A stretch of DNA of 23,759 nt, taken from NCBI GenBank assembly GCA_964450845.1, contig CAYVGZ010000012.1:1-23759 (forward strand). Reading direction: 5' to 3'. Below are positions 837 to 19,981 of this stretch, in pieces. Position 1 is the stretch's first letter. Each line of letters starts with the position of its first letter. The notes beneath the pieces are model-generated. The model had not been told where the DNA came from, did not search any database, and saw only the letters and a list, made by a program, of their open reading frames with translations. Position numbers and translations under genes: made by a program. The stretch is from an uncultured Candidatus Bathyarchaeia archaeon (GTDB taxonomy: Archaea; Thermoproteota; Bathyarchaeia; Bathyarchaeales; Bathycorpusculaceae).

Positions 837-839
837 CTA

Positions 840-1377: not shown

Positions 1378-1872
1378 CTACGGAAGAAGTTTAAGCAAAA
1401 AATTAACTAGGAAATCTGCGGCAGTTTCAACTTCAGATGTTATGCCTTCTCCAAAATCAGTTTTTTCAGGTTCTATTAGCAGTAATGCAATCTTCGCATT
1501 TGCTGTTTTGGCAAGATATTCACAAAAAATGCGCAGTGGAAGCATGTGTGTTGAAATTGCAGGAAAATTTGCTAATCGTTCTGGATTAATGAGCCTTGAA
1601 TTTCCGGGTTTTAAACCTAAAACTGCGGCATCTATCAGAAGAAGATGTGTCGGGTTAAAATCTATGATTTGTTGGATAAAGTTCTCTGGGACAGTTTCGC
1701 ACTCGATTAAGTAAACTTTTTCAGAAACTTTTCCCTGCAAATTTTGAACTATCTTAATACCGACGAAATCATCCATGCGGATAGGATTTCCAATGCCTGC
1801 TACAACTACTTTTTTAGCGTTTGAGAGCCATTCTTCTAGCTCTTTTTGAATATTGTATTTTTCGTTAGTCAT
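1378..1872 (-). CDS. hycI: [NiFe]-hydrogenase maturation endopeptidase (HycI-like)
   Basis: GIGNPIRMDDFVG, ETVPEN, LLLIDAA and STHMLPL motifs; last gene of the mvh operon. Confidence 0.88.
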   Translation of the reverse strand: MTNEKYNIQKELEEWLSNAKKVVVAGIGNPIRMDDFVGIKIVQNLQGKVSEKVYLIECETVPENFIQQIIDFNPTHLLLIDAAVLGLKPGNSRLINPERLANFPAISTHMLPLRIFCEYLAKTANAKIALLLIEPEKTDFGEGITSEVETAADFLVNFLLKLLP

Positions 1873-1918: not shown

Positions 1919-3373
1919 TTATCTATGCACAGTTTTGAGCAATTTCTTTTCGTGGTTATAGATTTCTACTGTTAACGGCATCTGTCCAATAGCGAAGTGT
2001 GAGGCGCACGCGAAGCATGGGTCGTAGGCTCTGAAAGCCATCTCCACCCTGTTGAGTACTCCTTCGCTTACTTTGTCGCTGTGAATTAAACCTTTAGCGG
2101 CATCACGAATCGACATGCAAATTGCCGGATAATTGTTAGTCGTTGCAACAATCAAGTTCACATTTTTAATGAGCGCATTTTCATCCAAAACATAATGATG
2201 AATCAATGTGCCTCTGGCTGCCTCCACTATTCCTACACCCTCTCCCGGCTTTCCCGGTAGATTGCGAACTTCTTTACTTGTTATCTCCGGGTCCTTGCTT
2301 AGTTCTACAGCATGCTCAGCAGCGTAAAGAATTTCAATAAGCCTAGCCCAGTGAAAAGCCAGCGTGGAGTGTACGGGTTTTCCGCCAAGTGTTTTGTACA
2401 TAATTTCGTATTCCTCTTGTGCCGAGGGAGTTGCCATGCCGTCTGCGGCGTTAAGTCTTCCAAGTGGTCCAACGCGGTAAACTCCGCTGTCTGAGCCGTC
2501 GACGAATCCTTTCCATCCCACTTTTTTAAGGTAGGGCGTTTTCACGTAAGTCCATTCTTCCACATGTTCATTAATGTGATTAAGATAGTCTTTGGGCGCA
2601 AATTTTAGAAACTCGTTACCGTTCGGGTCGACAACTCTAACTTTGCCGTCGTAGAAGTTAACCTTGTTATCCTCATCAACCAAACCCATATAGTAGGTTT
2701 TCAGCGTGTAAGCGTCGCTTTTAATCATCTCAACATAGTTTTCGTTTCCCAGAATAATGTCGTGAAACAGCTTCAACGAACGCTTTACGAAATCCACGCA
2801 GGAAGTAGCCATTTTTTCGATTTCTTGCCTGTCTTCTTCTCTTAACGGTTTAGAGATTCCGCCAGGTAACCCGCAAGCGGGATGGATGGCTTTTCCACCG
2901 ATGATTTCTACAATTCTTTGTCCATACGCCCTATGCTTTATGACTTCTTTGCCTATTTCTAACCCCGCCTTTTCAATTATTCCTAAAATGTTTCTTTTCT
3001 CTGGCGGAGCATCTGGTCCAACTATAAAGTCTGGGCCACCCAGATAGAAGAAGTGCAGTGTGTGATCTTCGATCATGTAGCCGCAGTACATGAGTTCCCT
3101 AAGTTTTTTCGCAACAGATGGAGGTTCAACGTTGAACGCGGCGTCTAAGGTTTTTGTACCAGCCATATGATGAGCAACTGGGCAGACTCCGCATATTCTG
3201 CTCGTCAGTTGCGGCATGTCCTCCGCTTTTCTTCCAACACAGAATCTTTCAAAGCCTCGTAGTTCTGGAATTTGAAGGTAAGCATTCTCCACATTTCCTT
3301 GCTCATTCAGAAAAATTGTGATTTTTCCGTGACCTTCAAGTCTAGTAATAGGATTTATGGTTACTTCTCTCAT
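1919..3373 (-). CDS. mvhA: Group 3c [NiFe]-hydrogenase large subunit MvhA (copy 1)
   Basis: TRLEGH, L1 RICGVCP, EAARG, L2 DPCFACASH followed by a cleavable tail. ATGA overlap with mvhG; Hdr context. Confidence 0.95.
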   Translation of the reverse strand: MREVTINPITRLEGHGKITIFLNEQGNVENAYLQIPELRGFERFCVGRKAEDMPQLTSRICGVCPVAHHMAGTKTLDAAFNVEPPSVAKKLRELMYCGYMIEDHTLHFFYLGGPDFIVGPDAPPEKRNILGIIEKAGLEIGKEVIKHRAYGQRIVEIIGGKAIHPACGLPGGISKPLREEDRQEIEKMATSCVDFVKRSLKLFHDIILGNENYVEMIKSDAYTLKTYYMGLVDEDNKVNFYDGKVRVVDPNGNEFLKFAPKDYLNHINEHVEEWTYVKTPYLKKVGWKGFVDGSDSGVYRVGPLGRLNAADGMATPSAQEEYEIMYKTLGGKPVHSTLAFHWARLIEILYAAEHAVELSKDPEITSKEVRNLPGKPGEGVGIVEAARGTLIHHYVLDENALIKNVNLIVATTNNYPAICMSIRDAAKGLIHSDKVSEGVLNRVEMAFRAYDPCFACASHFAIGQMPLTVEIYNHEKKLLKTVHR

Positions 3374-4362
3374 TTCTTCATCACTTTCCTTCTCAGAATT
3401 GAAGATGGAAGCGAATACATGTAAAACGTTCCCAGCGGGTCTTTTATTTGAGCAATAAGCTTTTCAACATCAGCTTCTGTGTACTTTTGCTTCTCTTCTT
3501 CTAAGCCGAGCAGCGACGCTAACGCACTCATCATCGCAGCTCCTTGCTCAGACGAATTTGGACACGGTCCCCCGCATCCAGTGCATGGCATACCTATCTG
3601 TATACATCTCGCATCGCATCCTCCGCGGGTTGCCGGACCCATGCAGATTATCCCTTGTTCTAAAAGACATTTGTTGGGGTCTGGGATAATTTCGTATATG
3701 CGGTGTATTTCAGTGATTTGCATCTTTCCTTTCTTCAAGGGGTTCAATGGGCATTCATCGCAGACCGATTTTGGCGGAGCGAGCACTGAGCCCTTCGGTG
3801 GAAGTTTACCTTTCGCTATGGTTTCTAAAGCATTTATTGTAAGCTCGACTGGTGGAGGACATCCTGGAATATAATAGTCAACGTCCACTGTTTGGGCTAA
3901 GGTTTTAACCGTGTCGTAGAATTCTGGAAGTTCCAGTTCTCCTTCTTTAACTTTGACTCGAGTTTTAGGAGCTACACCGTTCGGATTGGGTGTGGAGACA
4001 TTTTTGAGATAAACTTCTTCGAACACTTCTCTTCTGTTTGTGACGTTTGCTAAGCCAGGTATCCCTCCCATGTACGAGCATGACCCGTATGCGATTAGAG
4101 TTTTTGATTTCTTTCTCAGCAATTTCGCCATTTTCTCGTTTTCTTCTGTTCTTACCGCTCCGTTAAAGAAGCAGACGTCTATGTGTTTATCCGGCATGTT
4201 TTCAACGTCTTTGTATTTAATGTCGATGGCTACTGGCCAGAAAACGATGTCAGCTGCTTGTACAACTTCCAAGATTTTCTCGTTTATGTCTAAGACTGAG
4301 ATTTCGCAACCGCCGCAGCTTGCAGCCCAGTAAAACGCGAATTTCAGTTTCTCTTTCGCCAT
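3370..4362 (-). CDS. mvhG: Group 3c [NiFe]-hydrogenase small subunit MvhG (copy 1)
   Basis: SCGGCE, GSC, PGCPP, CDECP, CMGPATRGGC..RC, PCTGC. Start at ATG 4362 preferred; ATG 4371 is an alternative. Confidence 0.95.
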   Translation of the reverse strand: MAKEKLKFAFYWAASCGGCEISVLDINEKILEVVQAADIVFWPVAIDIKYKDVENMPDKHIDVCFFNGAVRTEENEKMAKLLRKKSKTLIAYGSCSYMGGIPGLANVTNRREVFEEVYLKNVSTPNPNGVAPKTRVKVKEGELELPEFYDTVKTLAQTVDVDYYIPGCPPPVELTINALETIAKGKLPPKGSVLAPPKSVCDECPLNPLKKGKMQITEIHRIYEIIPDPNKCLLEQGIICMGPATRGGCDARCIQIGMPCTGCGGPCPNSSEQGAAMMSALASLLGLEEEKQKYTEADVEKLIAQIKDPLGTFYMYSLPSSILRRKVMKK

Positions 4363-4372
4363 TCTTATCATC

Positions 4373-5254
4373 CTACCCTTGAATTTGACCTAGAAGCTCT
4401 GTTGGTTTAACCCTGAGCTCGTTTAGAGCAAGTTCTTCAGGTGTGAAACCCATTGCTAAGCCCAGCAACTGTGGATAATGCAGAACGGGTATACCAATCT
4501 TCGCGTTGAAAGCTTTTTCTATTCTTGGTTGGTTTAAGTCGTACATCATGTGACAGAATGGACAAACCGTGATGAGCGCTTGGGTTCCCACGGCTATGAC
4601 GTGGTCAAACTTTTCTTTCGCCATCTGAAATGGAATTGTTTCGTTGACTCCAATTATTGGGTTTCCACAGCATTCAGCCTCATCCATGTAGTCCAAACAC
4701 TCCGCACCGGTCAACCTAATTAGGGTTTTAAGAAATGTTGGGTTCTCAGGATCGTCTTTTTCTATGAGTTTCTTGGGACGGACTATGTGGCATCCAGTAT
4801 GCTGAGTGACACGAAGGTTGGTCAGTGGCTTTTTGACAGCGTTCTTTATTTTCTCAAAGCCTACGTCTTCAACTAAAACGTGGACGAGGTGTTTGATCTC
4901 TATTGTTCCCTTAAATTCCATGCCGATTTCCTTTAGGTATCCGTTAACTTTTTCTCTCAGCTTTTTGTCCTCTTTGAGCATCTTGTTTGTTTCATTTAAG
5001 ATGCCGAAACATCCGTTGCATAAAGTTAGAATGTTCAAGTTTTGTTTTTCTGCTAAACAAAGATTTCGCGCTGCCAAAGTTAGCATCAAGTCATGGTTTA
5101 TTGGATCCATCGGAAATCCGCAGCAGTTAAACTCGGGCATTTCAACTAATTCTACTCCGAGTTTATCAAGAACCTTTCTCGCAGAAATTTCGTAGCTTGA
5201 AAGCCTGTAGGGAATAACGCACCCTAAAAACAGTAAATACTTTGATTCTGGCAT
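4373..5254 (-). CDS. hdrB: Heterodisulfide reductase subunit B (copy 1)
   Basis: Two CCG domains with all 10 Cys: LGC, NCCG, CNGC, TGCH, ECCG, CPFC. Confidence 0.95.
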   Translation of the reverse strand: MPESKYLLFLGCVIPYRLSSYEISARKVLDKLGVELVEMPEFNCCGFPMDPINHDLMLTLAARNLCLAEKQNLNILTLCNGCFGILNETNKMLKEDKKLREKVNGYLKEIGMEFKGTIEIKHLVHVLVEDVGFEKIKNAVKKPLTNLRVTQHTGCHIVRPKKLIEKDDPENPTFLKTLIRLTGAECLDYMDEAECCGNPIIGVNETIPFQMAKEKFDHVIAVGTQALITVCPFCHMMYDLNQPRIEKAFNAKIGIPVLHYPQLLGLAMGFTPEELALNELRVKPTELLGQIQG

Positions 5255-5255: not shown

Positions 5256-5810
5256 TTAACTTTTCACCTTTTCGAAGGTTTTCACATTCTCAAGTATTTT
5301 TGAGGAACCTGTAACCTCGAAGATTTTTGCGACGTCTTCTAGGTTGGGTTTTGGCAATTGTGGAAGCCCCTGCTCTGTTCTTTTTTTATGTCGTGATTCT
5401 GGGATTTCGTAAACGTAGCCTGTTTTTAAGAGGTTAGAAGCTAATTCCTTGAAGACAAGGGGCATAATGCCTCTTTCTTTTATAGTTAGGTTTCGTAGGA
5501 CTCGTACAATGCTGGCGATCTCCACATTCTGAGGGCAATGGTCAACGCATGTGAAACAGGTGGAGCACAGCCAAAGGGCATCATCTGAAAGGAGTCTATC
5601 TTTCAATCCGAACTGCACCATACGCGCGATTTTTCTTGGTCTGTAAAGGTCACTGAATTTGGAAATTGGGCAGTCAGCAGTGCAGGTTCCGCATTGGAAG
5701 CACAGCATAAGTTTTTCTGCGCCATGCATCTTGCTAATTTCATACTTGAATTTCGGGTCTATTTCCTCAGCTTTTATAACGCTTGGAACATGTTCTTGTG
5801 TTTCACTCAT
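5256..5810 (-). CDS. hdrC: Heterodisulfide reductase subunit C (copy 1)
   Basis: CFQCGTCTADCP and LWLCSTCFTCVDHCP; directly precedes hdrB. Confidence 0.95.
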   Translation of the reverse strand: MSETQEHVPSVIKAEEIDPKFKYEISKMHGAEKLMLCFQCGTCTADCPISKFSDLYRPRKIARMVQFGLKDRLLSDDALWLCSTCFTCVDHCPQNVEIASIVRVLRNLTIKERGIMPLVFKELASNLLKTGYVYEIPESRHKKRTEQGLPQLPKPNLEDVAKIFEVTGSSKILENVKTFEKVKS

Positions 5811-6243
5811 TTTGTTTTCCTCCCATTTTTAACGGGTTTGGTCCAAGCTTTTTTATTTGTTCAACCATGTCCCGTACGATTGTAGCGAATTTGTCTCCTT
5901 CGCTTGCGGAAACCCATTCAAGCCGCACACGCTCTGGTTCAATTCCGAAATCTTGTAGAACTTTCTTTAATAGAGTTATCCTTCTTAAAGCTTTGAAGTT
6001 TCCGCTAATGTAATGGCAGTCTGATGGCAGGTGACATCCAGCAATAAGCACTCCATCTGCACCATCCTTTAAAGCTTCGAGGACAAACGAGGGGTCAATT
6101 CTGCCGCTACACATGACGCTTATGATTCTAATGTTCGGTGGATACTGAATTCTGCTAACTCCAGCCAAGTCTGCGCCCGCGTAGCTACACCAGTTGCAGA
6201 GGAAACCAATAATTTTTGGTTCAAACCCGTTTTTCTCGGTCAT
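5803..6243 (-). CDS. mvhD: MvhD [2Fe-2S] hydrogenase-HdrA adaptor
   Basis: Canonical CNWCSYAGAD, VMCSGR, GCH...DCHY, EWVSASEG. ATGA overlap with hdrA. Confidence 0.95.
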   Translation of the reverse strand: MTEKNGFEPKIIGFLCNWCSYAGADLAGVSRIQYPPNIRIISVMCSGRIDPSFVLEALKDGADGVLIAGCHLPSDCHYISGNFKALRRITLLKKVLQDFGIEPERVRLEWVSASEGDKFATIVRDMVEQIKKLGPNPLKMGGKQNE

Positions 6244-9200
6244 GCTTGTACCTCCACAAGTGCGGCTTTAACTTGGGCGAGTATCTCTTCCGTGGTGAAG
6301 TGCCCCATTATGATAGCTTTTGTTGGGCATGCTGTGCCGCAGACTCCGCAGCCTTTGCATAGGGCTTCAATTACATGCGCAATGGGTTTCCCATCTTTTT
6401 CCTTCATTTCAATCGCACTATATGGACATAGATGTTCACAAATCTTACATCCGCTACATAAATCTTCGTTAACGTTTGCCACTATTCCTTCCATCTCAAG
6501 TGTGAGTTTTGAGAGTATAGTTGTTGCCCGTGAAGCTGCTGCACAGGCTTGAGCAATGCTTTCGTCTATGTATTTTGGCGAGTGAGCTATTCCGCAGAGG
6601 AAAACGCCCTCTGTTGCGAAATCTACTGGTCTAAGTTTCATGTGGGCTTCTAAGAAAAAGCCATCCTCTGTTAATGGCACTTTCAGCAGTTCTGCCACAC
6701 GTTTGTTGTCTGGATTTGGAATTGTAGCTACGCTTAAAACGACGAGGTCTGGCTCAATTTCAACTTCTTCGTTTACTACTGGTTCCCAGAAGGATAATTT
6801 GAGTTTTCCATCTTCGTTTACAACTTGCGGTTTTCTTTCATCGTCATAATTTATGAATAGAACCCCTTTTTGTGCAGCTTCACGGTAATAGTCTTCTTTA
6901 AAGCCATATGCTCGCATATCTTTGTACAAAATGTAGACTTCTGTTTTTGGACTCTTTTCTTTGATTTTCAGTGCGTTTTTTATTGCTTGTCCACAGCATA
7001 TTCTTGCACAGTTTGGTCGTTTTTCATTTCTTGCTCCGACACATTGAATCATAACAACGTTTTTTGCATTAAAACGGTCATTCGCGATTTTTTCTTCTAG
7101 CTCGCGTTGGGTTATTACTCTCGGGTCTTTGCCGTAGAGGTATTCCGTGGGCTTATATTCAACTGCGCCCGTTGCTACTATTACTATGCCATGTTCAACC
7201 TCTTTTTCATCATCTCGCTGCTTTATTTTTGATTTGAAGTTGCCAACAAAACCAGTGACATCGACGACTTCAGCTTCCAAGTGAACATGTATCTTGTCGT
7301 TCTCCATAACAGCTTTGGCTAGAGCGTTTAACTTTTGCTTTGGGTCTTCATTCTCCAACAAGTAATGAATCTTACGTAAATGTCCGCCTAACTCTTTTTC
7401 TTTTTCAACAAGATGAACTTCAAATCCTTGATTTGCAAGTTCTAGGGCTGCAGTCATGCCGGAGACACCACCGCCTATGATTAAGCCAACTGGTGTGACA
7501 TTTATCACAGGTTTTTTCAATGGTTTTAGAAGTTTGGCTTTTGCCACTACTGAGCGGATTAGGTCTTTGGCTTTTTCTGTTGCCTTTTCTGGCTCATGTA
7601 TGTGAACCCAACTGCATTGGTCTCGAATGTTTGCCATCTCGAATAAGTAGGGGTTCAGCCCAGCCTCTTGAACTGTTTCTCTAAACAGTGGCTCATGGGT
7701 TCGCGGGGTACATGAAGCAACAACAACACGGTTAAGATTGTTCTCTTGAATTTTCTCTTTAATTAATTTTTGTGTATCTTGCGAGCATGTGTAAAGGTTG
7801 GCTTCTGCATAAGCCACGTTGGGCAAGGTTCTAGCATACGCTACGACCTCTGGAACATTTACTACTCCGCCTATGTTTATTCCGCAGTGACATACAAAAA
7901 CACCTATGCGTGGCTCTTCTTGGCTTATGTCCCTTTCATGCGGGTACTCTTTAACAGTTACAAGTTTCCCTCTTTCAGTTGCAATTGTACCCATAGCTTT
8001 AGCTGCTGCGCCGCTTGCCTGTGCAACGCTTTCTGGAATATCCTTTGGGGCACTGAACGCACCGCACACGAATATGCCTGGTTTTGAGGTTTCCAATGGC
8101 GAAAAATATTTTGTTTCACAGAACTTGTATTTGTTCAGCTCTACCCCCAAAATTTTAGCTAGTTTCTCCACGTTTTTTGGTGGCTGCATTCCAATTGACA
8201 GAACAACCATGTCGAATTCTTCAGTTTTAGGCGTCTCATTCTCAACATAGTGAACAAAAAGATTGGCTGTTAACGGATTTTCAGTTACGCTTGCAACCCT
8301 TGACCTCACAAATCTTATTCCCCACTCGCCTTTAGCTCGATTATAGTAAGCGTCAAACTCTTTTCCGTAAGCCCGCAAATCCATGTAGAAAATTGTGGGT
8401 TCCAGCTTCGTAGGCGTGTGTTCTTTAGCGATTACCGCCTCTTTTATTCCATACATACAACATGCAGCAGAACAATAGTTATTTCCAAGCTGGAAATCCC
8501 TTGAACCTACGCATTGGATAAAGGCTATTTTCTTCGGAATTTCACCGTCTGAAGGTCTTAAGACAAGCCCGCCATAGGGTCCAGAGGCGCTTAGAATGCG
8601 TTCAAATTCTATGCTTGTTACAACATTAAGATAGCGTCCATAGCCATATTCGCTTTTCAATTTTGCATCGAAAGCTTCGAATCCTGGTGCTAGTATTATT
8701 GAGCCTACGTTTAATGTGGCTTCGCTGTCTTGTTGGTCGTATTCTATTGCTTTTGCCTTGCAGATTTCAAGGCACGTTCCGCATCCAATGCATTTTTCAC
8801 GATCAATTTTATACTTTAATGGTACTGCTTGGGGATAGTCCACGTAAATTGCGCTTCTTCGGCTTAACCCTTCATTATATACGTCTACGGCTTCGATTGG
8901 GCATTTTTGTGCGCATAAACCGCATCCGTTGCATTTGTCTTCGATTATGTAACGACTTCGTTTTCGAACTTTTACTTCGAAGTTTCCAGCTTCACCGTTT
9001 AAGCCAGTTATTTCAGCGTTGGTCAAAATTGAAATGTTCGGGTGTCTTCCAGTTGCTACAAGTTTAGGCGAAAGAATGCACATTGAACAGTCGTTTGTTG
9101 GAAATGTCTTGTCAAGCTGAGCCATCACTCCGCCGACACTTGCTCCCTGATCAATTAAGTACACTTTAAACCCAGAATCTGCCAAGTCTAAAGATGCTTG

Positions 9201-9257
9201 TATCCCAGCAACTCCTCCTCCGACTACAAGGACCGCACCAACTTTTTGCTCAGCCAT
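6240..9257 (-). CDS. hdrA: Large two-module HdrA (1005 aa): FAD module 1 with inserted ferredoxin, HdrA N-type Fe-S domain, FAD module 2, C-terminal 2x[4Fe-4S]
   Basis: GGGVAG and GGGVSG Rossmann motifs; PTNDCSMC; two QCVG(S/A)R...C..(I/A)CC...K motifs; internal VCHCG/CS/CTP/QCSWVH domain; C-terminal CSGCKICEHLCP and CKGCGVCGTACP. GGAGGT RBS at 9270-9265. Confidence 0.95.
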   Translation of the reverse strand: MAEQKVGAVLVVGGGVAGIQASLDLADSGFKVYLIDQGASVGGVMAQLDKTFPTNDCSMCILSPKLVATGRHPNISILTNAEITGLNGEAGNFEVKVRKRSRYIIEDKCNGCGLCAQKCPIEAVDVYNEGLSRRSAIYVDYPQAVPLKYKIDREKCIGCGTCLEICKAKAIEYDQQDSEATLNVGSIILAPGFEAFDAKLKSEYGYGRYLNVVTSIEFERILSASGPYGGLVLRPSDGEIPKKIAFIQCVGSRDFQLGNNYCSAACCMYGIKEAVIAKEHTPTKLEPTIFYMDLRAYGKEFDAYYNRAKGEWGIRFVRSRVASVTENPLTANLFVHYVENETPKTEEFDMVVLSIGMQPPKNVEKLAKILGVELNKYKFCETKYFSPLETSKPGIFVCGAFSAPKDIPESVAQASGAAAKAMGTIATERGKLVTVKEYPHERDISQEEPRIGVFVCHCGINIGGVVNVPEVVAYARTLPNVAYAEANLYTCSQDTQKLIKEKIQENNLNRVVVASCTPRTHEPLFRETVQEAGLNPYLFEMANIRDQCSWVHIHEPEKATEKAKDLIRSVVAKAKLLKPLKKPVINVTPVGLIIGGGVSGMTAALELANQGFEVHLVEKEKELGGHLRKIHYLLENEDPKQKLNALAKAVMENDKIHVHLEAEVVDVTGFVGNFKSKIKQRDDEKEVEHGIVIVATGAVEYKPTEYLYGKDPRVITQRELEEKIANDRFNAKNVVMIQCVGARNEKRPNCARICCGQAIKNALKIKEKSPKTEVYILYKDMRAYGFKEDYYREAAQKGVLFINYDDERKPQVVNEDGKLKLSFWEPVVNEEVEIEPDLVVLSVATIPNPDNKRVAELLKVPLTEDGFFLEAHMKLRPVDFATEGVFLCGIAHSPKYIDESIAQACAAASRATTILSKLTLEMEGIVANVNEDLCSGCKICEHLCPYSAIEMKEKDGKPIAHVIEALCKGCGVCGTACPTKAIIMGHFTTEEILAQVKAALVEVQA

Positions 9258-10014
9258 TTATTTAACCTCCAATGCTTTGTAAAATGGAGTTGTTCCTTCC
9301 ACATGGTCTAATGCTATCATGTTTCTTCTGCGCATGTCCACAATTTGTCTAAGCACGTCTGATGGTTTCATTTCAACTGTTTTTGCTAAATCTTTGACCG
9401 AAAGTGGCCTAGTTTTCGTTAATAGGTAAAATTTATGTCGAATGAACTCTTCTTTAACAATTTCATCCATCAATGCGTCAAACTCATCTTGAGGAATTTT
9501 CTCGCCATAAACATTCACGCCTTCTGTCAACTCTTTTTCTCTTCCAAGCAAAACTCTCAAGCGAAAATCAGAAGCAGCATTCTTAGCCGCTAAAACATTC
9601 ACCATTAATCCAGATTCCAGCTTCCCGCTTTTTAAAGGAGAAGAACCGAGCTTGGCTATTTCACTAGAAAATTCTTTTGCATAGTAATTGAAGCTTTTCT
9701 CCTCTAAAGGCGAAACCAGAAGAAGTTTTTATACGTTCAGGCTCTAAGCCAGTAAACGCTACAAGCTTCTTTAACATTTTGACTGCACGTTCTGCTTGAA
9801 CGTTTCCTTCAATAAAGTGGCAGTCAGGCGGCTTGCAGCCAACCATCATAACAGCGTCTGCGCCTTTTTCAAGCGTCTCAAGGACTATGACTGGATCGAT
9901 TCTTCCTAGGCACATGACACGGACGACATTTACGTTGGATGGAACATGCATTTCACTCTGGCAAAAAGTCCAGTTGCACATGAAACAAACAATCTTATGC
10001 TCACGAGAACCCAT
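9258..10014 (-). pseudogene. MvhD-like [2Fe-2S] domain fused to a helical/winged-helix domain, interrupted by a single extra base (ORFs 9664-10014 and 9258-9605). May be a sequencing error rather than a true pseudogene.
   Basis: Removing one base of the T5 run at 9726-9730 changes ERIKTSSG... into ERIKLLLVSPLEEKSFNYYAKEFSSEIAKLGSSPLK. This aligns with MvhD ERVRLEWVSASEGDKFATIVRDMVEQIKKLGPNPLK and reads in frame into ORF 9258-9605, giving 251 aa. Confidence 0.85.
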
Positions 10015-10020: not shown

Positions 10021-11736
10021 TCACTCCTTCACAGTTGCTAAGGCAAGGCTCATTATTTGCTCGTTAGACACTTTCTTCATTGTTATGGCTTGTTCAGGGC
10101 ACCTTGCTACACATATTCCACAGCCCTTGCAAAGGTCTTCATTCACTTGTGCAACCTCTCTTTCATTCTTTTTAATCGCCCCAAACGGGCAAACAACTGC
10201 ACAAACATTACAGCCTGTGCAAAGACCTTCATCCACAACAGCCTTGTCAGCTTCACATAATTCCAAGTTTCCGAGGCACTCTGCGCATGGGCCACAGCCT
10301 AAGCAGCGAAAAGCTTCAAACATTGCTTTCTGTTCTATCTTTTTTAAATACTCTTTTGCTTCTTCAAAACTCAGCCGTGGCTTCTCCAATGGAGACTCAT
10401 ACCTACGTTCTTTCTTTCCGACGTGCCCCCAGTTTTTAACCCACGTTGTCTCTTCAACGTTTCCTTCCCTTCCTTCACGCAAGTCTTGCCCCGTCAAGTA
10501 GAGATTGATTGAAACAGCTGCTCTTTTTCCTGCTCCGACAGCTTCAATTATGCTTGCTGGTCCTGTGGCTATGTCGCCTCCTGCAAATACACCTGGCAAT
10601 CTAGTTTCTAATGTCACTGGATCAACTTGCATTGATGGAACTTTTGCTTCCTTGTCCCAAAGCTCCTCGGGTACGCATGACATTTCTGCTACTTGTCCAA
10701 GGGCAGGAATTACCATGTCCACCTCGTATTGATGTTCAGAGAAGCTTATTGGAATTGGGCGCCTTCTGCCGCTTGCATCAGGTTCACCCAACCGCATGCG
10801 CAAACATTCAACAGCCTTAACCTTGCCATTTTCACCTATGATCTGTTTTGGTGCAACTAGAAAATAGAATTTGATTCCGTCTCTTTCAGCTTCTGCAATT
10901 TCATGCGGTAGCGCTGGCATTTCTTCACGCGAACGCCTGTATAGAATCATGACTCGTTTTGCACCAAGTCTTTTTGCCGTTCTCGCAGCATCTATGGCGC
11001 TGTTTCCGCCACCAACAACCGCTACTTTTTCTCCAACATCAACATGCTCACCAAGCGCTACAGCCTTTAAAAAGTCAACAGCGTTTATTGAACCTTCTAA
11101 ATCTTCACCTGACACGTTTAACTTCATGCCTTGCTGAGCCCCAATAGCTATGAAAATGGCTTTGTAGCCTTCGTTTCGTAAGCTTTCAAGGGTTATGTCT
11201 TTTCCGAATTCCACACCTGTTTTGATTTCTACGCCTAAGTCTTTGATGTATGCTATCTCGTTTGCAACTACAAATTTTTCGAGGCGAAAGTCAGGAATGC
11301 AATAACGCATCATGCCTCCGTTTTCAGACATTCGCTCGAAAACTGTTACTGGATAACCGAGTTTTGCAAGCTCGTATGCAGCAGTTAAGCCTGCTGGACC
11401 TGCACCTATAATTGCAACTTTTTCACTATGCTTCTTTGGTATAGGCTCTGGTCTGACGCGCCCTTGATCACGCTCAATGTCAGCAACCAATCTTTTCAGA
11501 GCACGAATAGCCACTGCCTGATCAACATTCGTTCTTGCACATGCATCTTCGCAGGGACTGAAGCAAACTCTTCCACATATCGCTGGAAAAGGCATGTCTT
11601 TTCGTATAAGTTCCACAGCTTCCTTGAATTTTCCTCTCTGAATCAGAGAAACGTACCCTTGAACGTTAACATGTGCCGGACATGCAGCTCTGCACGGAGG
11701 GAATTTCTTTACGTTTGTGTGGCTATTATTTGCCAT
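10021..11736 (-). CDS. GltD/NfnB-like FAD/NAD(P)H oxidoreductase with N-terminal Fe-S clusters and an HdrA-type C-terminal 2x[4Fe-4S] ferredoxin
   Basis: PPCRAACPAH, CGRVCFSPCEDAC, GAGPAG, GGGNSA...YRRS, FAGGD, RCLGCGPCAEC, then CTGCNVCAVVCP and CKGCGICVARCP. ATG 11736 preferred over TTG 11778. Confidence 0.88.
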   Translation of the reverse strand: MANNSHTNVKKFPPCRAACPAHVNVQGYVSLIQRGKFKEAVELIRKDMPFPAICGRVCFSPCEDACARTNVDQAVAIRALKRLVADIERDQGRVRPEPIPKKHSEKVAIIGAGPAGLTAAYELAKLGYPVTVFERMSENGGMMRYCIPDFRLEKFVVANEIAYIKDLGVEIKTGVEFGKDITLESLRNEGYKAIFIAIGAQQGMKLNVSGEDLEGSINAVDFLKAVALGEHVDVGEKVAVVGGGNSAIDAARTAKRLGAKRVMILYRRSREEMPALPHEIAEAERDGIKFYFLVAPKQIIGENGKVKAVECLRMRLGEPDASGRRRPIPISFSEHQYEVDMVIPALGQVAEMSCVPEELWDKEAKVPSMQVDPVTLETRLPGVFAGGDIATGPASIIEAVGAGKRAAVSINLYLTGQDLREGREGNVEETTWVKNWGHVGKKERRYESPLEKPRLSFEEAKEYLKKIEQKAMFEAFRCLGCGPCAECLGNLELCEADKAVVDEGLCTGCNVCAVVCPFGAIKKNEREVAQVNEDLCKGCGICVARCPEQAITMKKVSNEQIMSLALATVKE

Positions 11737-11780
11737 TGTTAAACCAGCTGAGTGTAGAATAATACTCGTTCCCTGCAAAA

Positions 11781-11788
11781 TATATTAA
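11781..11788 (-). promoter_or_regulatory. Candidate TATA box of operon A
   Basis: TTAATATA on the minus strand about 45 nt upstream of ATG 11736, in the intergenic gap. Confidence 0.4.
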
Positions 11789-11867: not shown

Positions 11868-12458
11868 TTATTCGCGTAATCTGCCTTCTAATTTGCTTAC
11901 CCACTTATTGTAATCCCGGGCACCTAGCAAGTTCCCTAATTCCTGTTCCAAGACCAGAGAGTTATTGGGTTTGATCTCCACGATCCATCCTTCTTTATAT
12001 GGGTCTTCATTGATTATGCGAGGCTCATTCTTCAGTTTTTCGTTAACCTTGACTATTTTACCAGTGACTGGTGCGTATAGGTCGAACATGAACATCCATG
12101 TTTCAGCAACGCCGAAAGGCTCCATTTTGTTGATTTCTTTTCCAACAGGATCAGTCATTACGTGAGCTATACCTTTTAGGTGATTTTGCGCATAGTCTGA
12201 AACTCCGACGCGGATGTTTCCTTTAGGTGTTACTTGAGCCCAAGTGTGTTTAGGCGTATATAACATCAACTCTGGTGTCAGCAAAAGTTCTTTGCGCTTT
12301 TCTGCTGGGATTCCTTCAGCACGCATAAGGTCTTCCAAGCGCAGGCGGATGGCTTCGGAGACGAATTCTGATATGCTTCGGTAGCGACCAGTTCTAATGG
12401 CTTCTTCGATTTCTTTGATGAGTTCTTGTCTTATACTCACGGTTTTCCATTCAGACAT
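11868..12458 (-). CDS. Ribbon-helix-helix (CopG/Arc/MetJ-type) domain fused to a glycine-cleavage H-protein-like domain lacking the lipoyl-lysine
   Basis: N-terminus WKTVSIRQELIKEIEE...YRSISEFVSEAIR (RHH). C-terminus LYTPKHTW, RVGVSDYAQ, GVAETWMFMFDLYAPVTG, VNEKL, INEDPYKEGWI (GcvH). Strong RBS GGAGGGTGA. Confidence 0.85.
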   Translation of the reverse strand: MSEWKTVSIRQELIKEIEEAIRTGRYRSISEFVSEAIRLRLEDLMRAEGIPAEKRKELLLTPELMLYTPKHTWAQVTPKGNIRVGVSDYAQNHLKGIAHVMTDPVGKEINKMEPFGVAETWMFMFDLYAPVTGKIVKVNEKLKNEPRIINEDPYKEGWIVEIKPNNSLVLEQELGNLLGARDYNKWVSKLEGRLRE

Positions 12459-14691: not shown

Positions 14692-15567
14692 TTAGCCGAT
14701 TTTGTTTAGTACATTGTCCACTTTTATTTTGTGAAAATCAAGCACAAGCTCCTTCGAGTCTATTCCTAAGCCTAAGCTTAAAAGTTCCGAATAATGGAGA
14801 ACTGGCATATTGTAATCTTCGTGAAATGTTGACTTTATCAGCATCTGCCCCAAGTCTAGTGTTAAGAAACAGAAAGGGCAGAGAGTTGCTATACAGTCAG
14901 CGCCTGCTTTAGTGGTGTTCACGATTTTTTCACGGGCGATCGCCAATGCGACATCGTCAGCGTAACCCCTCAGAAGCCCTCCGCAACATTTCAACTTGTT
15001 TCGGTACCAAATGCTTTCTGCACCTAATGCCCCGATCAGATCGTCAAAGATGTGGGGACGCTCAGGGTCATCGAATTTGAGAAGTGTACTCGGTCTAAGC
15101 AGGTGACAGCCTGAAAACGATGCCACTTTCAGTTTGCCCAAATCTTTTGATACACTCTTCTTTAAGCGATCTAAGCCCACATCATTCATCAAGACTTGTA
15201 GGTAATGTTTCACTTCTTTGTTGCCCTTGAATTCTTTTCCAGCATTAGACAAAATTTGGTTCACTCTTGCCCGCAGTTTTTCATTTTCTTTCAACGTAGC
15301 ATTCGCCATAGCTAGAGACTCAAAACAGCCTGTGCATAATGTAACAATATTTAGGTCAGATTCTTCAGCCAGACAGATGTTGTATGCGGCAATGGATAAG
15401 CTTGTTTCCAAATCTATGGACTGCAACGGCGGTGGAGCGCAGCATGTCATGTTGTCTAGATCAACAAGCTCTATTCCCAGCTTAGCTAAAGCTTTCCTTG
15501 CAGACACTTCGTAGTGTGGCTGACGAGCTGGTATGGTGCAACCGAGAAATAGAGCATAACTTGTCAT
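14692..15567 (-). CDS. hdrB: Heterodisulfide reductase subunit B (copy 2)
   Basis: LGC, TCCA, CTGC, SGCH, KCCGG, CPFC: 10 Cys. ATGA overlap with hdrC2. Confidence 0.94.
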   Translation of the reverse strand: MTSYALFLGCTIPARQPHYEVSARKALAKLGIELVDLDNMTCCAPPPLQSIDLETSLSIAAYNICLAEESDLNIVTLCTGCFESLAMANATLKENEKLRARVNQILSNAGKEFKGNKEVKHYLQVLMNDVGLDRLKKSVSKDLGKLKVASFSGCHLLRPSTLLKFDDPERPHIFDDLIGALGAESIWYRNKLKCCGGLLRGYADDVALAIAREKIVNTTKAGADCIATLCPFCFLTLDLGQMLIKSTFHEDYNMPVLHYSELLSLGLGIDSKELVLDFHKIKVDNVLNKIG

Positions 15568-16079
15568 GATGCTTCTTCCTTCTTCTGCAACTCATCAAAC
15601 CCAGTGGCGGAAAGTATCTTTCTCAACCCATCTACGCCTGCTGGCTTAAGAGGCGGTAAACCCACTTCGGGTCTTTTCTTTTCCAAGAATTTAGAAATTG
15701 GGACTATGCGACCTTCACTCAACAATCCAGCTGCAAACTCTGAATAAATGTTTGGGATATTGCCTTCTTTGATGGCTATGTTTCTTAACGCGTAAATTAC
15801 ATCGGCTATTTCAACTTTTTGAGGGCATCGCTCTTGGCAGTTGTAGCATGAGCAGCAAAGCCATATTGCATCGCCAGAGAGAATCTCTTTCTTTTCTCCC
15901 CAAAGCGACAGTTTAATAACTTCTCTTGGATTGAACTTTTCTGTAATTTTAGCCACTGGACAGCTGCTGGCGCAGGTTCCACACTGGTAGCATAGAGTTA
16001 CAGTTTCACCGCCTAATCGACTCGTAATTTCCTTAGAAAACGCCAGGTCGTTGATGTTTTCTTCTTTTCTCTGCACCAT
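15564..16079 (-). CDS. hdrC: Heterodisulfide reductase subunit C (copy 2)
   Basis: CYQCGTCASSCP and IWLCCSCYNCQERCP. Confidence 0.94.
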   Translation of the reverse strand: MVQRKEENINDLAFSKEITSRLGGETVTLCYQCGTCASSCPVAKITEKFNPREVIKLSLWGEKKEILSGDAIWLCCSCYNCQERCPQKVEIADVIYALRNIAIKEGNIPNIYSEFAAGLLSEGRIVPISKFLEKKRPEVGLPPLKPAGVDGLRKILSATGFDELQKKEEAS

Positions 16080-16095
16080 TCCAGCTTGTCTCCGT

Positions 16096-18513
16096 TTAGG
16101 TTTTCATCAGCTGCAGTGGACCCAGCTTTTCTAATTTTTCAGTCATCATTTGAGCGGCTTCGGCAAACTTGTCTCCTTCAATGTACACCATATTGAACAT
16201 CTCCAACCGTTCTGGCTCTATGCCATATTCCTTCAGCAACGCTTTTGTAAGTTCCACTTTCTTTTCAGCCTTGTTGACGCCGACTTCGTAGTGGCAACCG
16301 TCACTCTTGCAGCCTACAACCATTACTCCTTGGGCGCCAGCTTCGAACGCTTTTAGAAACTGGTTGATTTGCAATAAGCCCGTGCATGGAACCTTCATAA
16401 CTCTAACGTTAGCAGGGTACTGCATCTTGGCCATGCCTGAAGAGTCCACGGCTGTGCCTCCGCATTCTGAACAGCAGACAGCAAGAACCAAGGGTTTTGA
16501 TGTTCCATTTATGGACATAAGAGCCGTCATTTGAGCTTGCATCTGTTCTGGCCTATAATGCCGAAGTTCGATAGCGTTGACGGGACAAGTTCCTACGCAA
16601 ATGCCGCAGCCTTCACATAGGAGATCGGATATCCTCGCAACAAAATGCTCTTCATCCTTAGGCTCCAAACTTATGGCTCCGTAAGGACACGTGACAGGAC
16701 AGAATTCGCAGTCGCCGCAATATTCTTCATTAACCACGGCAGTTCTCTGATCTTTGACTATCTTGCCCGTGTTCAAGAACTTGGCAGTCTTCACAGCCGC
16801 TGAATGAGCATGAAGCGAAGTCGTCGGTGCATCTTTCGGGAATGTGGCGCCTCCACAGAGAAACACTCCTCTAAGCTTGGTCTCCGTGGGTCTTAACTTG
16901 GCATTGTACTCTTTAAAGAAGCCATCTTCATCTAACTCGATACCGAGAATTTCGGCTAGTTCCTTAGTTCCTTCAGCTGGCACCATGGCTGGCGCAAGCA
17001 CCACTAAGTCAGCTTCTAACTCGAGGAATTTTCTCGAAATTTGATCCTCAACATCGACGATTAGCAAGTTGACTTCTGGGTCATGCACGATTTCGGTTGG
17101 TCTACCTTTTACGAATTTTATTCCCATCTCTCTGGCTTTTTCATAATAGTACTCATGCTCTCTTCCTGTGGTTCTTACATCTATGTAACATATAGTGACG
17201 TCTGCATCGGGATAGGCTGATTTAATTAACATTGCATGTTTTAGCGAAATCATGCAACAAATGCCTGAGCACCAAGGATTCCATCGTCTATCGCGCGAAC
17301 CGACACATTGAATCATAACGATTCTTTTAGCAGGCTTTCGATCTGAAGGTCTAATAATCTCACCAGCAGTGGGGCCAAAGCCATCGATCATTCTTGCAAA
17401 TTCGAGATTAGTTATGATGTCTGGATACTCGCCATAGTGATACTCCTTTATCACGCTGGGGTCGTATTCTTGGAAGCCAGTAGCAACTATTATGCTGCCT
17501 ACGTTAAGTGTTGTTTTCTTACTTTTCTGGTTTAATTCAATGGCTTTGGTTGGGCAAACTTCAACGCATTTGGCGCAATCTTGAAATTTGCATACACTAT
17601 CGTCAATGACGTAGACTGGCGGATAAACGTTAGGAATGTTCATGTAAATAGCCTTGCGAGTTTTCAGCTTCGCATTGTATTCATCTGGCACTTCCACGGG
17701 ACAAACAGTTGTGCAAAGATCACAGCCAACGCATTTCAGTTCATTGACGTATCGTGGTTTCTTCTCTACTGTGACCTTATAGTTTCCAGGAACCCCCTCA
17801 ACGCCAACGATTTTGGAATTGGTCAGTATATTTAAGTTAGAAATCTCTGTGAATCCTGAACGGTACACGCACTTTCTGGAGGTGTGAGTTATCGTTTTGA
17901 CATCTGAAGCTGGAGACTGTATACAAATGGCGCAGTCATCAGTAGGGAAGAATCGACCTGCGCGAGCAGCCAAGCCTCCGAGAAAAGGCGCTTTTTCAAC
18001 CAGATGCACTTTGAATCCTAAATCCGCCAAATCTTCAGCTGCCTGCATTCCAGCTATACCTCCGCCTATCACTAGGACAGATTTCAAAGCTGGAAATTCG
18101 AGTTTCTCTATGGGCTCAAGAAGCTTTGCGCGTTCGATAGCAGCTAAAAGCATGGCTTTGGCTTTTTCAGTAGCTTCCGACGGCGTGTCTCGATGAGGCC
18201 ATGCACAGTGATCTTTAAGGTCTAAGACCGTCACTAAATATGGATTGAGCCCTGCATTTTCAACTGCTTGAACGATTTTCACTTCGCTTAGCTTTGGAAG
18301 ACTTTCTGCAACGACGACCCTGCTTAGCTTTCCATTCTTAATGGCATCTACGATGGTCTGTAGTCCTGGGTCTCGCCAAAACTCGCTGCCTCTTGCAACA
18401 AAAGCCACACCAGAAACTTTTTTCACGTAGCTTGTTAAGGCATCAAAGTCCAAGATTTCAGAAAGCTGTTTTCCGCAATCAGATAGAAATACTCCAACTT
18501 TAACTTCTTCCAT
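16096..18513 (-). CDS. hdrA: HdrA::MvhD fusion (805 aa) with degenerate N-terminal Fe-S domain
   Basis: GGGIAG, PTDDCAIC, inserted ferredoxin, QCVGSRD...CSGICCMISLK, C-terminal ferredoxin, then MvhD-like CCSEC, VPCTG, GCKSDGCHY, ERLEM. RBS GGTGAGGGG. Confidence 0.93.
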   Translation of the reverse strand: MEEVKVGVFLSDCGKQLSEILDFDALTSYVKKVSGVAFVARGSEFWRDPGLQTIVDAIKNGKLSRVVVAESLPKLSEVKIVQAVENAGLNPYLVTVLDLKDHCAWPHRDTPSEATEKAKAMLLAAIERAKLLEPIEKLEFPALKSVLVIGGGIAGMQAAEDLADLGFKVHLVEKAPFLGGLAARAGRFFPTDDCAICIQSPASDVKTITHTSRKCVYRSGFTEISNLNILTNSKIVGVEGVPGNYKVTVEKKPRYVNELKCVGCDLCTTVCPVEVPDEYNAKLKTRKAIYMNIPNVYPPVYVIDDSVCKFQDCAKCVEVCPTKAIELNQKSKKTTLNVGSIIVATGFQEYDPSVIKEYHYGEYPDIITNLEFARMIDGFGPTAGEIIRPSDRKPAKRIVMIQCVGSRDRRWNPWCSGICCMISLKHAMLIKSAYPDADVTICYIDVRTTGREHEYYYEKAREMGIKFVKGRPTEIVHDPEVNLLIVDVEDQISRKFLELEADLVVLAPAMVPAEGTKELAEILGIELDEDGFFKEYNAKLRPTETKLRGVFLCGGATFPKDAPTTSLHAHSAAVKTAKFLNTGKIVKDQRTAVVNEEYCGDCEFCPVTCPYGAISLEPKDEEHFVARISDLLCEGCGICVGTCPVNAIELRHYRPEQMQAQMTALMSINGTSKPLVLAVCCSECGGTAVDSSGMAKMQYPANVRVMKVPCTGLLQINQFLKAFEAGAQGVMVVGCKSDGCHYEVGVNKAEKKVELTKALLKEYGIEPERLEMFNMVYIEGDKFAEAAQMMTEKLEKLGPLQLMKT

Positions 18514-18523
18514 GTTTAACCCC

Positions 18524-19981
18524 TCACCTTCTCAACTTCTTTACAAGTTGCCTTTCGCTGTCGTAAATCTCCACTTCTAAAGGCATTTCCCCAATAGCAA
18601 AGTGAGTAGCACAAGCAAAGCATGGATCATAAGCCCTAAAAGCCATCTCCACCATGTTCAATATTCCATCACTGACTTTACCGTTGTGTATAAGGCCTTT
18701 TGCAGCATTTTTCACCGACATACAAATGCCAGGAGCGTTATGAGTTGTAGCTACTATAAGGTTAACTTTTTTGGCTAAGGCTTTCTCATCAAGTATATAA
18801 TGGTGAATTAAAGTGCCCCTAGCAGCCTCGACTATTCCAATTCCTTCACCAGGTTTTCCAGGTTTGTTTTTTATGTCTTTTCTAGTTATTTCTGGGTCTG
18901 TTATCAATTCTAGTGCCCGTTCAGTTGCGTACATTAATTCTATAAGCCGCGCCCAGTGGAAAGCTAAAGTGGCGTGGACTGGTTTTCCACCTAAAGTTTT
19001 ATACATTCTTGTGTATTCTTCTTGTGCTATGGGCGTTGCCATGCCTTCTGCAGCGTTAAGTCTTCCTAGCGGGCCTACCCTGTAAATGCCGCTGTCAACT
19101 CCATCAACCAAGCCTTTCCAACCAACCTTTTTGAGGTAGGTCAACTTGACGTAGGTCCATGGTTCAACATGCTCTTCGATAACATCCAAATATTCTTTAG
19201 GAGCAAACTTCAAAAACTCCTTTCCTTCGGGGTTTACCACTCGCACATTGCCGTCGTAGAAGTTCACTTTATTGTTTTTGTCAACTGTTCCCATGTAATA
19301 GGTTTTCAGAGCGTAAGGCTCGCTTTTAATCAAGTTTACGTAGTCAACGTTTTTGAGAACCACATCGCCGAAGAGTTTCAGAGAGAACTTGGCGAAATCG
19401 ACACAACTTCTAACCATTTTCTCGATTTCTTGCCTATCTTCCTCAGACAACGCCTTTGCAATTCCGCCAGGAATACATGCACTTACAGGATGAGTCGGTC
19501 TCCCTCCAAGTATGCCTGTTATCTTCTGCCCATAAGCCCTATGTTTTATTACTTCCTTGCCAATTTCTAAACCAGCCTTTTCTATCACTCCAAGCACGTT
19601 TCTTTTCGCTGGCGGAGCATCTGGTCCTACGACAAAGTCGGGACCGCCCAAAAAGTAGAAGTGAAGTATATGGTCATAGATAAAGTAGCCACAATACATT
19701 AGTTCTCTAAGTTTTTTAGCGGTTTCTGTAGGTTCTACGTTGAATGCCGCGTCTAAAGCCTTTGCTCCTGCCATGTGATGTGCAACTGGGCATACGCCGC
19801 AGATTCTAGTGGTTATTATAGGCAGGTCTTCGGCTCTTCTTCCTTCGCAGAACTTTTCGAACCCTCTGAGTTCAGGAACTTGAAGGTAAGCGTTTTCAAC
19901 ATTTCCCTCATCATTCAAGAATATTGTTATTTTTCCATGCCCTTCAAGCCTTGTGATTGGGTCTATGATTACTTCTTTCAT
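18524..19981 (-). CDS. mvhA: Group 3c [NiFe]-hydrogenase large subunit MvhA (copy 2)
   Basis: TRLEGH, RICGVCP, EAARG, DPCFACATH plus tail. Colinear with copy 1. Confidence 0.95.
   Translation of the reverse strand: MKEVIIDPITRLEGHGKITIFLNDEGNVENAYLQVPELRGFEKFCEGRRAEDLPIITTRICGVCPVAHHMAGAKALDAAFNVEPTETAKKLRELMYCGYFIYDHILHFYFLGGPDFVVGPDAPPAKRNVLGVIEKAGLEIGKEVIKHRAYGQKITGILGGRPTHPVSACIPGGIAKALSEEDRQEIEKMVRSCVDFAKFSLKLFGDVVLKNVDYVNLIKSEPYALKTYYMGTVDKNNKVNFYDGNVRVVNPEGKEFLKFAPKEYLDVIEEHVEPWTYVKLTYLKKVGWKGLVDGVDSGIYRVGPLGRLNAAEGMATPIAQEEYTRMYKTLGGKPVHATLAFHWARLIELMYATERALELITDPEITRKDIKNKPGKPGEGIGIVEAARGTLIHHYILDEKALAKKVNLIVATTHNAPGICMSVKNAAKGLIHNGKVSDGILNMVEMAFRAYDPCFACATHFAIGEMPLEVEIYDSERQLVKKLRR

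Follow-up and report, generated by a model that had tools for sequence, protein, structure and literature searches.

A stand-alone GltD-type flavoprotein with an HdrA-type ferredoxin tail as a candidate NAD(P)H arm of a Bathyarchaeial Mvh-Hdr-type complex

In anoxic sediments, Bathyarchaeia belong to the most abundant archaea without cultures and, to our knowledge, their energy metabolism has been inferred from genomes only. Their Mvh-Hdr gene clusters are usually taken to encode plain H2-dependent ferredoxin/heterodisulfide reductases. One such cluster lies in a 23,759-nucleotide (nt) stretch of DNA from an uncultured Candidatus Bathyarchaeia archaeon (the window, which is contig C12 of a 1.64-Mb, 93 % complete metagenome-assembled genome) and begins with the gene of a flavoprotein of 571 amino acids (aa), here called GltD-Fd, in which a GltD/NfnB-type core is followed by a ferredoxin tail of the HdrA type. 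The question raised by this locus is what an NAD(P)H flavoprotein of this kind does at the head of an Mvh-Hdr operon. An earlier note had read it as a 'split HdrL'. The analysis reported here suggests that GltD-Fd probably serves as an NAD(P)H-binding donor or acceptor subunit, a modular input/output arm, of a Bathyarchaeial Mvh-Hdr-type complex, a reading drawn from its domains and motifs and from the conserved co-location and co-orientation of its gene with hdrA, mvhD and hdrBC.

Domain architecture and circular permutation of GltD-Fd

The gene and the parts of its product are as follows.

10021-11736, minus strand: gltD-Fd, 571 aa, FAD/NAD(P)H flavoprotein of a permuted NfnB/GltD-like type that ends in a ferredoxin tail of the HdrA type (stop codon at 10021-10023)
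11464-11700, minus strand: N-terminal 2x[4Fe-4S] domain of the GltD/DPD type (Fer4_20, Pfam; Cys15, 19, 54, 58, 62 and 66 invariant)
10528-11421, minus strand: FAD and NAD(P)H Rossmann domains (GAGPAG; GGGNSA...YRRS; Pyr_redox_2)
10255-10425, minus strand: permuted segment and junction, a helix and RCLGC behind the core, then CxxCx6C (alignment to the canonical NfnB N-terminus; motif survey)
10024-10242, minus strand: HdrA-type C-terminal 2x[4Fe-4S] ferredoxin tail (NCBIfam, BLASTP and genome-wide matches)

The succession of a GltD/NfnB core, the motif RCLGCGPCAEC and a 2x[4Fe-4S] tail, as first noticed from the letters alone, is borne out by Pfam, which places Fer4_20, Pyr_redox_2 and a C-terminal 2x[4Fe-4S] dicluster on the protein, and by 12 orthologs of 51–85 % identity, in which all 16 tail and junction cysteines and RCLGCGPCAEC are invariant and the FAD GxGxxG and GGGNxA/YRR motifs are kept. 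The NAD(P)H-site stretch (GGGNSA...YRRS) aligns with the corresponding stretch in solved structures of the NADPH-dependent NfnI-L, NfnB, StnC and NfnABC (NfnA subunit), in agreement with the earlier assignment of these motifs to the NADPH type. The open reading frame (ORF) occupies 10021-11778 on the minus strand; the ATG at 11736, which gives 571 aa, is favoured over an alternative TTG start because orthologs are 567–577 aa long and because an AT-rich TATA-like element, TTAATATATTTT (11777-11788, ~47 nt 5' of the ATG), overlaps the TTG. This element may act as a promoter. One ortholog, of 426 aa (L051, G167:C5, 7438-8718), is without residues ~200–345, which correspond to the NAD(P)H-binding domain.

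The core belongs to the GltD/NfnB type in a circularly permuted form. The canonical NfnB/GltD N-terminus carries the motif RC-x2-C-x4-C-x3-CP, whereas GltD-Fd begins at the third cysteine of this motif (PPCRAACP) and has the preceding helix and RCLGC at residues ~455–481, behind the core, so that Cys3 and Cys4 of the first cluster are residues 15 and 19, while Cys1 and Cys2 are residues 478 and 481. The Fer4_20 match is restricted to profile positions 30–111 of 113, and residues ~438–493 align to the first 60 aa of canonical Bathyarchaeial NfnB with a score of 65 (shuffled sequences, 24.7 +/- 4.4, maximum 42). In an HdrL encoded by the same genome, positions 1–42 of TIGR01316 match downstream of positions 10–449. 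The permutation itself is not new, since almost every one of the 150 best representative clusters shows it and the alignment to the solved structures 8OH5_C and 9BOV_A extends through the RCLxC segment behind the core; that to 9N5U_A stops at residue 425. The break falls between Cys2 and Cys3 of one cluster motif, and the two ends of the core are therefore expected to adjoin in space, an arrangement that would suit domain insertion. Behind RCLxC, the junction reads CxxCx6C in GltD-Fd versus CxxCxxCxxxC in HdrL, one junction cysteine of HdrL being missing from GltD-Fd. The junction CxxCxxC(xxxC) was considered as a relic of the inserted ferredoxin of HdrA that would establish descent from HdrL, and was rejected as proof; it says nothing on the direction of change because the full motif also occurs in stand-alone GltD-Fd(-MvhD) proteins of other lineages.

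The parallel drawn earlier between this tail and that of the HdrA in the window is upheld. In BLASTP the two share 42 % of their residues over 76 aa (E 5e-16), in a match that extends beyond the last cysteine motif into a helix of the '...EEIL' type. Residues 509–581 of the TTG-extended translation align to positions 568–639 of the NCBIfam HdrA2 model with 75 bits, PorD-type ferredoxins reaching 52–54 bits, and the top four matches of the tail across the whole genome are all C-terminal ferredoxin domains of HdrA proteins.

The MvhD::wHTH partner, the tandem HdrA and the gene order

GltD-Fd heads a tight minus-strand operon (gltD-Fd > mvhD::wHTH > tandem hdrA > mvhD > hdrC > hdrB > mvhG > mvhA > hycI) with a spacing of -8 to +6 nt from gltD-Fd to mvhA.

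9258-10014, minus strand: mvhD::wHTH (MvhD joined to a winged helix), here split by an extra A at 9726-9730 (tblastn with an intact ortholog; AF2 model)
6240-9257, minus strand: tandem (type II) hdrA, 1005 aa (alignment to 5ODC_A; Pfam, NCBIfam)
5803-6243, minus strand: canonical mvhD, 146 aa (FlpD 189 bits, full length; 40 % identical to the MvhD part of MvhD::wHTH)
5256-5810, minus strand: hdrC (Pfam, NCBIfam)
4373-5254, minus strand: hdrB (Pfam, NCBIfam)
3370-4371, minus strand: mvhG (Pfam, NCBIfam)
1919-3373, minus strand: mvhA (Pfam, NCBIfam)
1378-1872, minus strand: HycI-type maturation protease (Pfam, NCBIfam)

That an mvhD-type gene stands directly behind each of the two tails holds, in that both genes belong to the FlpD/MvhD family: the first starts at 10014, 6 nt past the flavoprotein stop, and the second at 6243, with a 4-nt overlap with the hdrA stop. 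The first is, more exactly, an mvhD::wHTH gene. In every relative, a single ORF of 247–258 aa lies between gltD-Fd and hdrA, its N-terminus being MvhD and its C-terminus corresponding to a 115-aa ORF of the window. The copy in the window consists of two ORFs (9664-10014 and 9258-9605) split by one extra A in the A5 run at 9726-9730; tblastn with an intact ortholog puts the frame change at '...ERIK|LLLVSP...', and deleting one A restores the frame. Since the gene is intact, with 251 aa, in close relatives, including those with 93 % identity, the frameshift either arose in sequencing or assembly or is a lesion of this strain.

In the AF2 model of an intact ortholog (pLDDT 88.8, pTM 0.86), the first 135 residues superpose on MvhD as seen in solved structures of Mvh-Hdr and Fdh-Hdr (E 1e-10, TMt 0.8; 5ODC_D, TM 0.80). 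In the window and at L012:11239-11994, the first cysteine pair of this protein is CNWxxC where CNWC would be usual. The last 70–85 residues weakly match winged helices of the ArsR/SmtB type, and this part is present in 76 of 301 sampled Bathyarchaeia genomes, nearly always in ORFs of 250–290 aa. It occurs in 525 protein clusters, and all those with an organism name belong to Bathyarchaeia. Such a domain raises the alternative of a redox sensor, in which GltD-Fd would signal the NADPH/NADP+ state to the [2Fe-2S] cluster of MvhD::wHTH and the winged helix would bind DNA and regulate the Hdr/Mvh operons. The likeness of the C-terminal domain to ArsR/SmtB-family repressors (NolR, HlyU, SmtB and CzrA; TMt 0.5–0.59, Foldseek E 6e-3 to 2e-2) and the further putative regulators that flank the cluster speak for this alternative, although the fold match is weak and the gene lies inside the operon, translationally coupled between structural genes. 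Moreover, mvhD::wHTH occurs once per upstream tail-bearing module, and twice at L051, where two mvhD::wHTH > tandem hdrA pairs stand in series, while paralogs join a GltD-Fd core to MvhD without any winged helix. A sensor is thus considered unlikely.

The tandem HdrA aligns to 5ODC_A in three segments (residues 9–373 to 146–511, 447–600 to 2–155 and 833–998 to 483–648). Its first half comprises TrxR with an inserted ferredoxin and a TNDCSxC motif that holds the equivalent of Cys197, without the N-terminal domain and C-terminal ferredoxin, whereas the second half has the N-terminal domain, a TrxR lacking both Cys197 and an inserted ferredoxin, and the C-terminal ferredoxin. Complementary halves of this kind are the pattern known for fused or tandem HdrA proteins that act as their own heterodimer (PMC9012536); such HdrAs have been named type II and described as a fusion of classes A6 and A12 (PMC12054007). 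[quoted passage not shown] In a separate observation, the frame of the tandem HdrA at L045 (G155:C1, 5847-9578) continues into an M20 peptidase domain, 1243 aa in all; this reflects either an actual fusion or an HdrA truncation near residue 885, or else a chimera created by assembly.

The gene order is well conserved. Full-length GltD-Fd orthologs of 68–85 % identity occur in 14 of 40 related genomes, and the order RHH::GcvH-like > gltD-Fd > mvhD::wHTH was found in all 12 fetched orthologous loci. Eleven of the 12 go on to tandem hdrA > mvhD > hdrC > hdrB (> mvhG > mvhA > hycI), and the contig of the remaining one ends early; a tandem hdrA thus follows in every orthologous locus that reaches far enough, which answers the question of synteny raised with the first reading. 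In one genome (G030) the cluster is kept through hdrB and hycI with no adjoining mvhGA. In 14 of 14 distant loci, which were anchored on the winged-helix domain, a gene of the 1005-aa HdrA type lies directly downstream of mvhD::wHTH. The upstream slot of these loci is taken by one of two kinds of gene, either a GltD-Fd (L045, from another family at 51 % identity, L051 and L054) or a split HdrA pair of 435 and 557 aa (A6-like and A12-like), which matches the halves of the tandem HdrA and whose second member ends in a C-terminal ferredoxin. GltD-Fd therefore sits in a slot that is otherwise taken by a second HdrA unit. The fragmented locus L052 was also read with TAG as a sense codon; its genes were not restored, the fragmentation comes from frameshifts and this reading was dropped.

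The tails are consistent with a shared slot, as those of GltD-Fd proteins are closest to the tails of A12-like HdrAs. The best matches of the tail in the window are five of nine compared A12-like HdrA tails that precede MvhD::wHTH, together with GltD-Fd-MvhD fusions (48–55 % identity, 81–92 bits). Four divergent GltD-Fd tails score 81–102 bits against A12-like HdrA and Core-Fd-MvhD tails, 50–77 bits against tandem HdrA tails and likewise lower against HdrL tails and the HdrA::MvhD fusion. The trend is clear and not absolute, the tails of the most distant lineages scoring lower.

The same gene order bears on the proposal that GltD-Fd and MvhD::wHTH dock on MvhAG instead of HdrA, as a simple H2:NADP+ oxidoreductase in competition with HdrA for the hydrogenase. 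In the solved Mvh-Hdr complex, MvhD lies between MvhG and the C-terminal ferredoxin of HdrA (PMC9012536), and by analogy with this arrangement and the 5ODC_D match the GltD-Fd tail would cover the HdrA face of its MvhD and leave the MvhG face free; the operon also encodes two MvhD-type proteins and one MvhAG. However, mvhD::wHTH is directly upstream of tandem hdrA in all the distant loci, at least two lineages keep GltD-Fd > MvhD::wHTH > HdrA without adjacent mvhAG, and in other Bathyarchaeia the same arm is carried by a second HdrA pair instead of an NADPH enzyme. Docking on MvhAG is accordingly judged improbable, at about the same level as the sensor.

Around the operon, the following genes were identified.

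11868-12458, minus strand: RHH::GcvH-like protein, 5' neighbour of gltD-Fd (Pfam; kept beside the cluster in relatives)
14692-20934: second Mvh-Hdr operon, with an 805-aa HdrA::MvhD fusion
3-1340, plus strand: genes of an aldehyde:ferredoxin oxidoreductase (AOR) and a 4Fe-4S protein, convergent to the hydrogenase end of the operon and found in the same place in several relatives

The RHH::GcvH-like gene lies upstream of gltD-Fd in all orthologous loci, in some as two tandem copies, and its product has methionine at the position of the lipoyl lysine (ETWMFMF versus ESVKAAS). It is probably a regulator outside the enzyme; the idea that it provides a lipoyl-disulfide substrate for HdrBC was rejected, because the lipoyl lysine is replaced.

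HdrL, core phylogeny and the proposed role

The genome of GltD-Fd also encodes a true HdrL (type III HdrA) of 1127 aa (contig C29, L009:6147-9530, minus strand). Behind its gene come hdrC, hdrB, an ORF of 128 aa that has no Pfam match, and an acyl-CoA dehydrogenase gene. Its insert (residues 282–754) is 54 % identical to residues 4–479 of GltD-Fd, and its C-terminal ferredoxin (1032–1112) is 49 % identical to the GltD-Fd tail. The NAD(P)H-site motif of this HdrL, GGGNVA...YRRS, is of the NADPH type; for type III HdrA, NADH has been inferred from a GXGXXG motif (PMC12054007). On contig C6 there is a third GltD-like paralog of 478 aa (L010:5266-6702, plus strand), in which an N-terminal Fer4_8 dicluster replaces the RCLxC segment, directly followed by an HdrA-like flavoprotein of >532 aa (L010:6707-8302, plus strand).

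A search for the architecture and its neighbourhood, with classes assigned by BLAST with HdrA, MvhD, tail and core segments, covered 168 sequences in which the core is nearly complete; they comprise ORFs of the fetched loci and the majority of the 150 best clusters in a library of 1.8 billion proteins.

Core inside HdrA: 59 of 168, among them 13 'tandem HdrL' of 1400–1500 aa that are colinear with the 1005-aa HdrA of the window plus a core
Core > ferredoxin > MvhD: 14 of 168
Core > ferredoxin: 24 of 168
Core fused to large non-Hdr (presumably molybdopterin-type) domains: 26 of 168

Two of the GltD-Fd-MvhD paralogs, from Bathyarchaeia, were confirmed by Pfam (702–735 aa; L024:10051-12258 and L025:5000-7108); the flanks of both showed no BLAST match to the Hdr or Mvh proteins of the window. 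The existence of such single chains supports a functional link of GltD-Fd to MvhD.

Trees of the core were built with FastTree (168 rows) and IQ-TREE (67 rows), with the canonical NfnB of relatives (L036-L038) as the outgroup, which is separated with a support of 100. The GltD-Fd orthologs (10 or 8, depending on the tree) form a clade with a support of 100, within a clade with a support of 95 that also holds Bathyarchaeial HdrL inserts, Bathyarchaeial Core-Fd-MvhD proteins and a second HdrL group including a Dehalogenimonas protein (in IQ-TREE, 25 rows, nine of them HdrL). The core is thus placed with HdrL inserts and not with ordinary NfnB/GltD. Architecture changes often on the tree (71 changes over 168 rows), and the order within the 95 clade, including the sister group, gives no decision on a descent of GltD-Fd from HdrL.

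This bears on the alternative of an ordinary subunit of the NfnB/SudA/GltD type, belonging to a transhydrogenase, sulfide dehydrogenase or glutamate synthase and merely located beside hdr genes. High scores against TIGR01316/gltA and GltD models and against NfnB structures are in its favour, yet they stay below all curated cut-offs (TIGR01316, 368.4 bits versus 471.75; TIGR01317, 239.5 bits versus 447.7, both in NCBIfam), the topology is permuted, and no gene for an NfnA/SudB (PyrK-like) or GltB partner was found in the window or the 12 orthologous loci. A canonical gene of the NfnB type exists separately in the genome, broken over the ends of contigs C45 and C114, canonical NfnB being the outgroup of the trees, and the synteny with hdrA is kept down to 51 % identity. 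An ordinary subunit is therefore very improbable.

The term 'split HdrL' can be kept in part. GltD-Fd and the 1005-aa tandem HdrA together have the domain content of the fused 1400–1500-aa tandem HdrL, and the core shares a clade with HdrL inserts. What does not fit is the point of attachment: in HdrL the core lies within the inserted ferredoxin, that is, in the output arm, whereas in GltD-Fd it is joined straight to a ferredoxin of the C-terminal type, the input arm, which has MvhD::wHTH behind it and is closest to A12-like HdrA tails.

If GltD-Fd is an arm of the Mvh-Hdr-type complex, electrons would pass from NADPH to the FAD of the GltD core and on to its two [4Fe-4S] clusters, then possibly through an extra cluster at three conserved cysteines of the junction to the two tail clusters, the [2Fe-2S] cluster of MvhD::wHTH and the tandem HdrA, or along the same path in reverse. 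The complex would thereby gain a port for NADP(H) besides H2, and either NADPH may be a further donor of mid potential or NADP+ may accept electrons from an H2-driven bifurcation. The tail and MvhD::wHTH would constitute a portable docking arm, which in other Bathyarchaeia would be carried by a second HdrA pair and in the GltD-Fd-MvhD paralogs would be fused to the GltD core.

Several points weigh against this proposal. The path from H2 via FAD to ferredoxin and HdrBC appears complete through the second half of the tandem HdrA, and a second port is then not strictly needed; the winged helix on the partner may point to a regulatory rather than an electron-transfer role; the preference for NADPH is predicted from motifs; and if the extra base in mvhD::wHTH is real, the arm would be broken in the source organism.

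A more specific version of the proposal is possible but doubtful. What the A6-like first half of the tandem HdrA is missing, a C-terminal-ferredoxin/MvhD input arm, might be provided in trans by GltD-Fd and MvhD::wHTH, which would yield an asymmetric Hdr machine with two donors (H2 and NADPH) and two flavins. In this case MvhD::wHTH, as a connector specific to Bathyarchaeia, would daisy-chain exchangeable donor modules (a second HdrA pair or an NADPH flavoprotein) onto the tandem HdrA. Wiring of this kind is not yet known from Hdr complexes.

Should the arm itself prove true, a detachable NADPH module on a tandem HdrA would link H2, NADP(H), ferredoxin and a thiol/disulfide couple in one machine, and the GltD insert of HdrL/type III HdrA would have a trans-acting counterpart. 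The exchangeable arm, the fusion of arm and core in paralogs and the grouping of tails by their shared partner offer concrete hypotheses for expression and cryo-EM studies.

Comparison with known systems

The closest known systems are HdrL and type III HdrA. HdrL was defined in Desulfobacterium autotrophicum as a fusion of HdrA and glutamate synthase followed by mvhD (PMC2702500), HdrAs with NfnB inserts are known from ANME-1 (PMC9012536), and type III HdrA includes a Bathyarchaeota class whose hdrA cluster contains mvhADG (PMC12054007). The GltD insert in these proteins has been interpreted as an NAD(P)H site (PMC12054007, PMC2702500). They share with GltD-Fd the permuted core, the RCLxCxxCxxC junction and an HdrA-type C-terminal ferredoxin, usually before mvhD, but their core is embedded in HdrA with the TrxR-like FAD domain on both sides, whereas GltD-Fd is a separate polypeptide without the TrxR and N-terminal domains of HdrA and has a dedicated MvhD::wHTH partner. 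MvhD has been described as a generic adaptor for which Fdh and Mvh compete (PMC6085437).

NfnB (the large subunit of NfnAB; 4YLF_B, 5JCA_L), SudA and GltD resemble GltD-Fd in FAD, the NADPH site GGGNxA...YRR and the two [4Fe-4S] clusters of the N-terminal domain (E 2e-91 to 3e-69); GltD-Fd differs from them in its permutation, its extra ferredoxin tail, the lack of an NfnA/GltB partner and its scores below curated cut-offs. The best matches among solved structures are GltD-like modules of the Bfu family, namely StnC (8OH5_C), NfnA of NfnABC (9N5U_A; PMC11829005) and 9BOV_A (E 3e-124 to 8e-113). Their cores are fused to molybdopterin- or hydrogenase-like domains and work with NuoE/F-like partners, without an HdrA-type tail or MvhD, while no molybdopterin/hydrogenase-like domain or NuoE/F-like neighbour was found in GltD-Fd or the window. 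Most of the Bfu-family cores fall into a separate basal clade with a support of 96 in the FastTree tree, and the four sampled for IQ-TREE group at 81.

The order of C-terminal ferredoxin and MvhD is the same in HdrA::MvhD fusions (type Ia HdrA/HdrA2, and the 805-aa protein of the second operon), whose catalytic part is the bifurcating flavoprotein of HdrA, whereas that of GltD-Fd is a GltD-type NADPH flavoprotein. The family NF009410 (PRK12771, 'NAD(P)-binding protein'), which has a generic name without an assigned function, is colinear with GltD-Fd over model positions 38–561 of 566, the TTG-extended translation scoring 513.8 bits against a cut-off of 516. Current databases list the two proteins as 'FAD-dependent oxidoreductase' (GltD-Fd) and 'hydrogenase iron-sulfur subunit' (MvhD::wHTH), and the closest named homologs of GltD-Fd come from Bathyarchaeia/Bathycorpusculaceae. 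In the open-access papers and preprints searched, no description was found of a stand-alone GltD-Fd with MvhD::wHTH beside a type II HdrA. The protein family itself is large and known, and the combination of GltD-Fd and MvhD::wHTH beside a type II HdrA is a variant within it, not a new kind of system.

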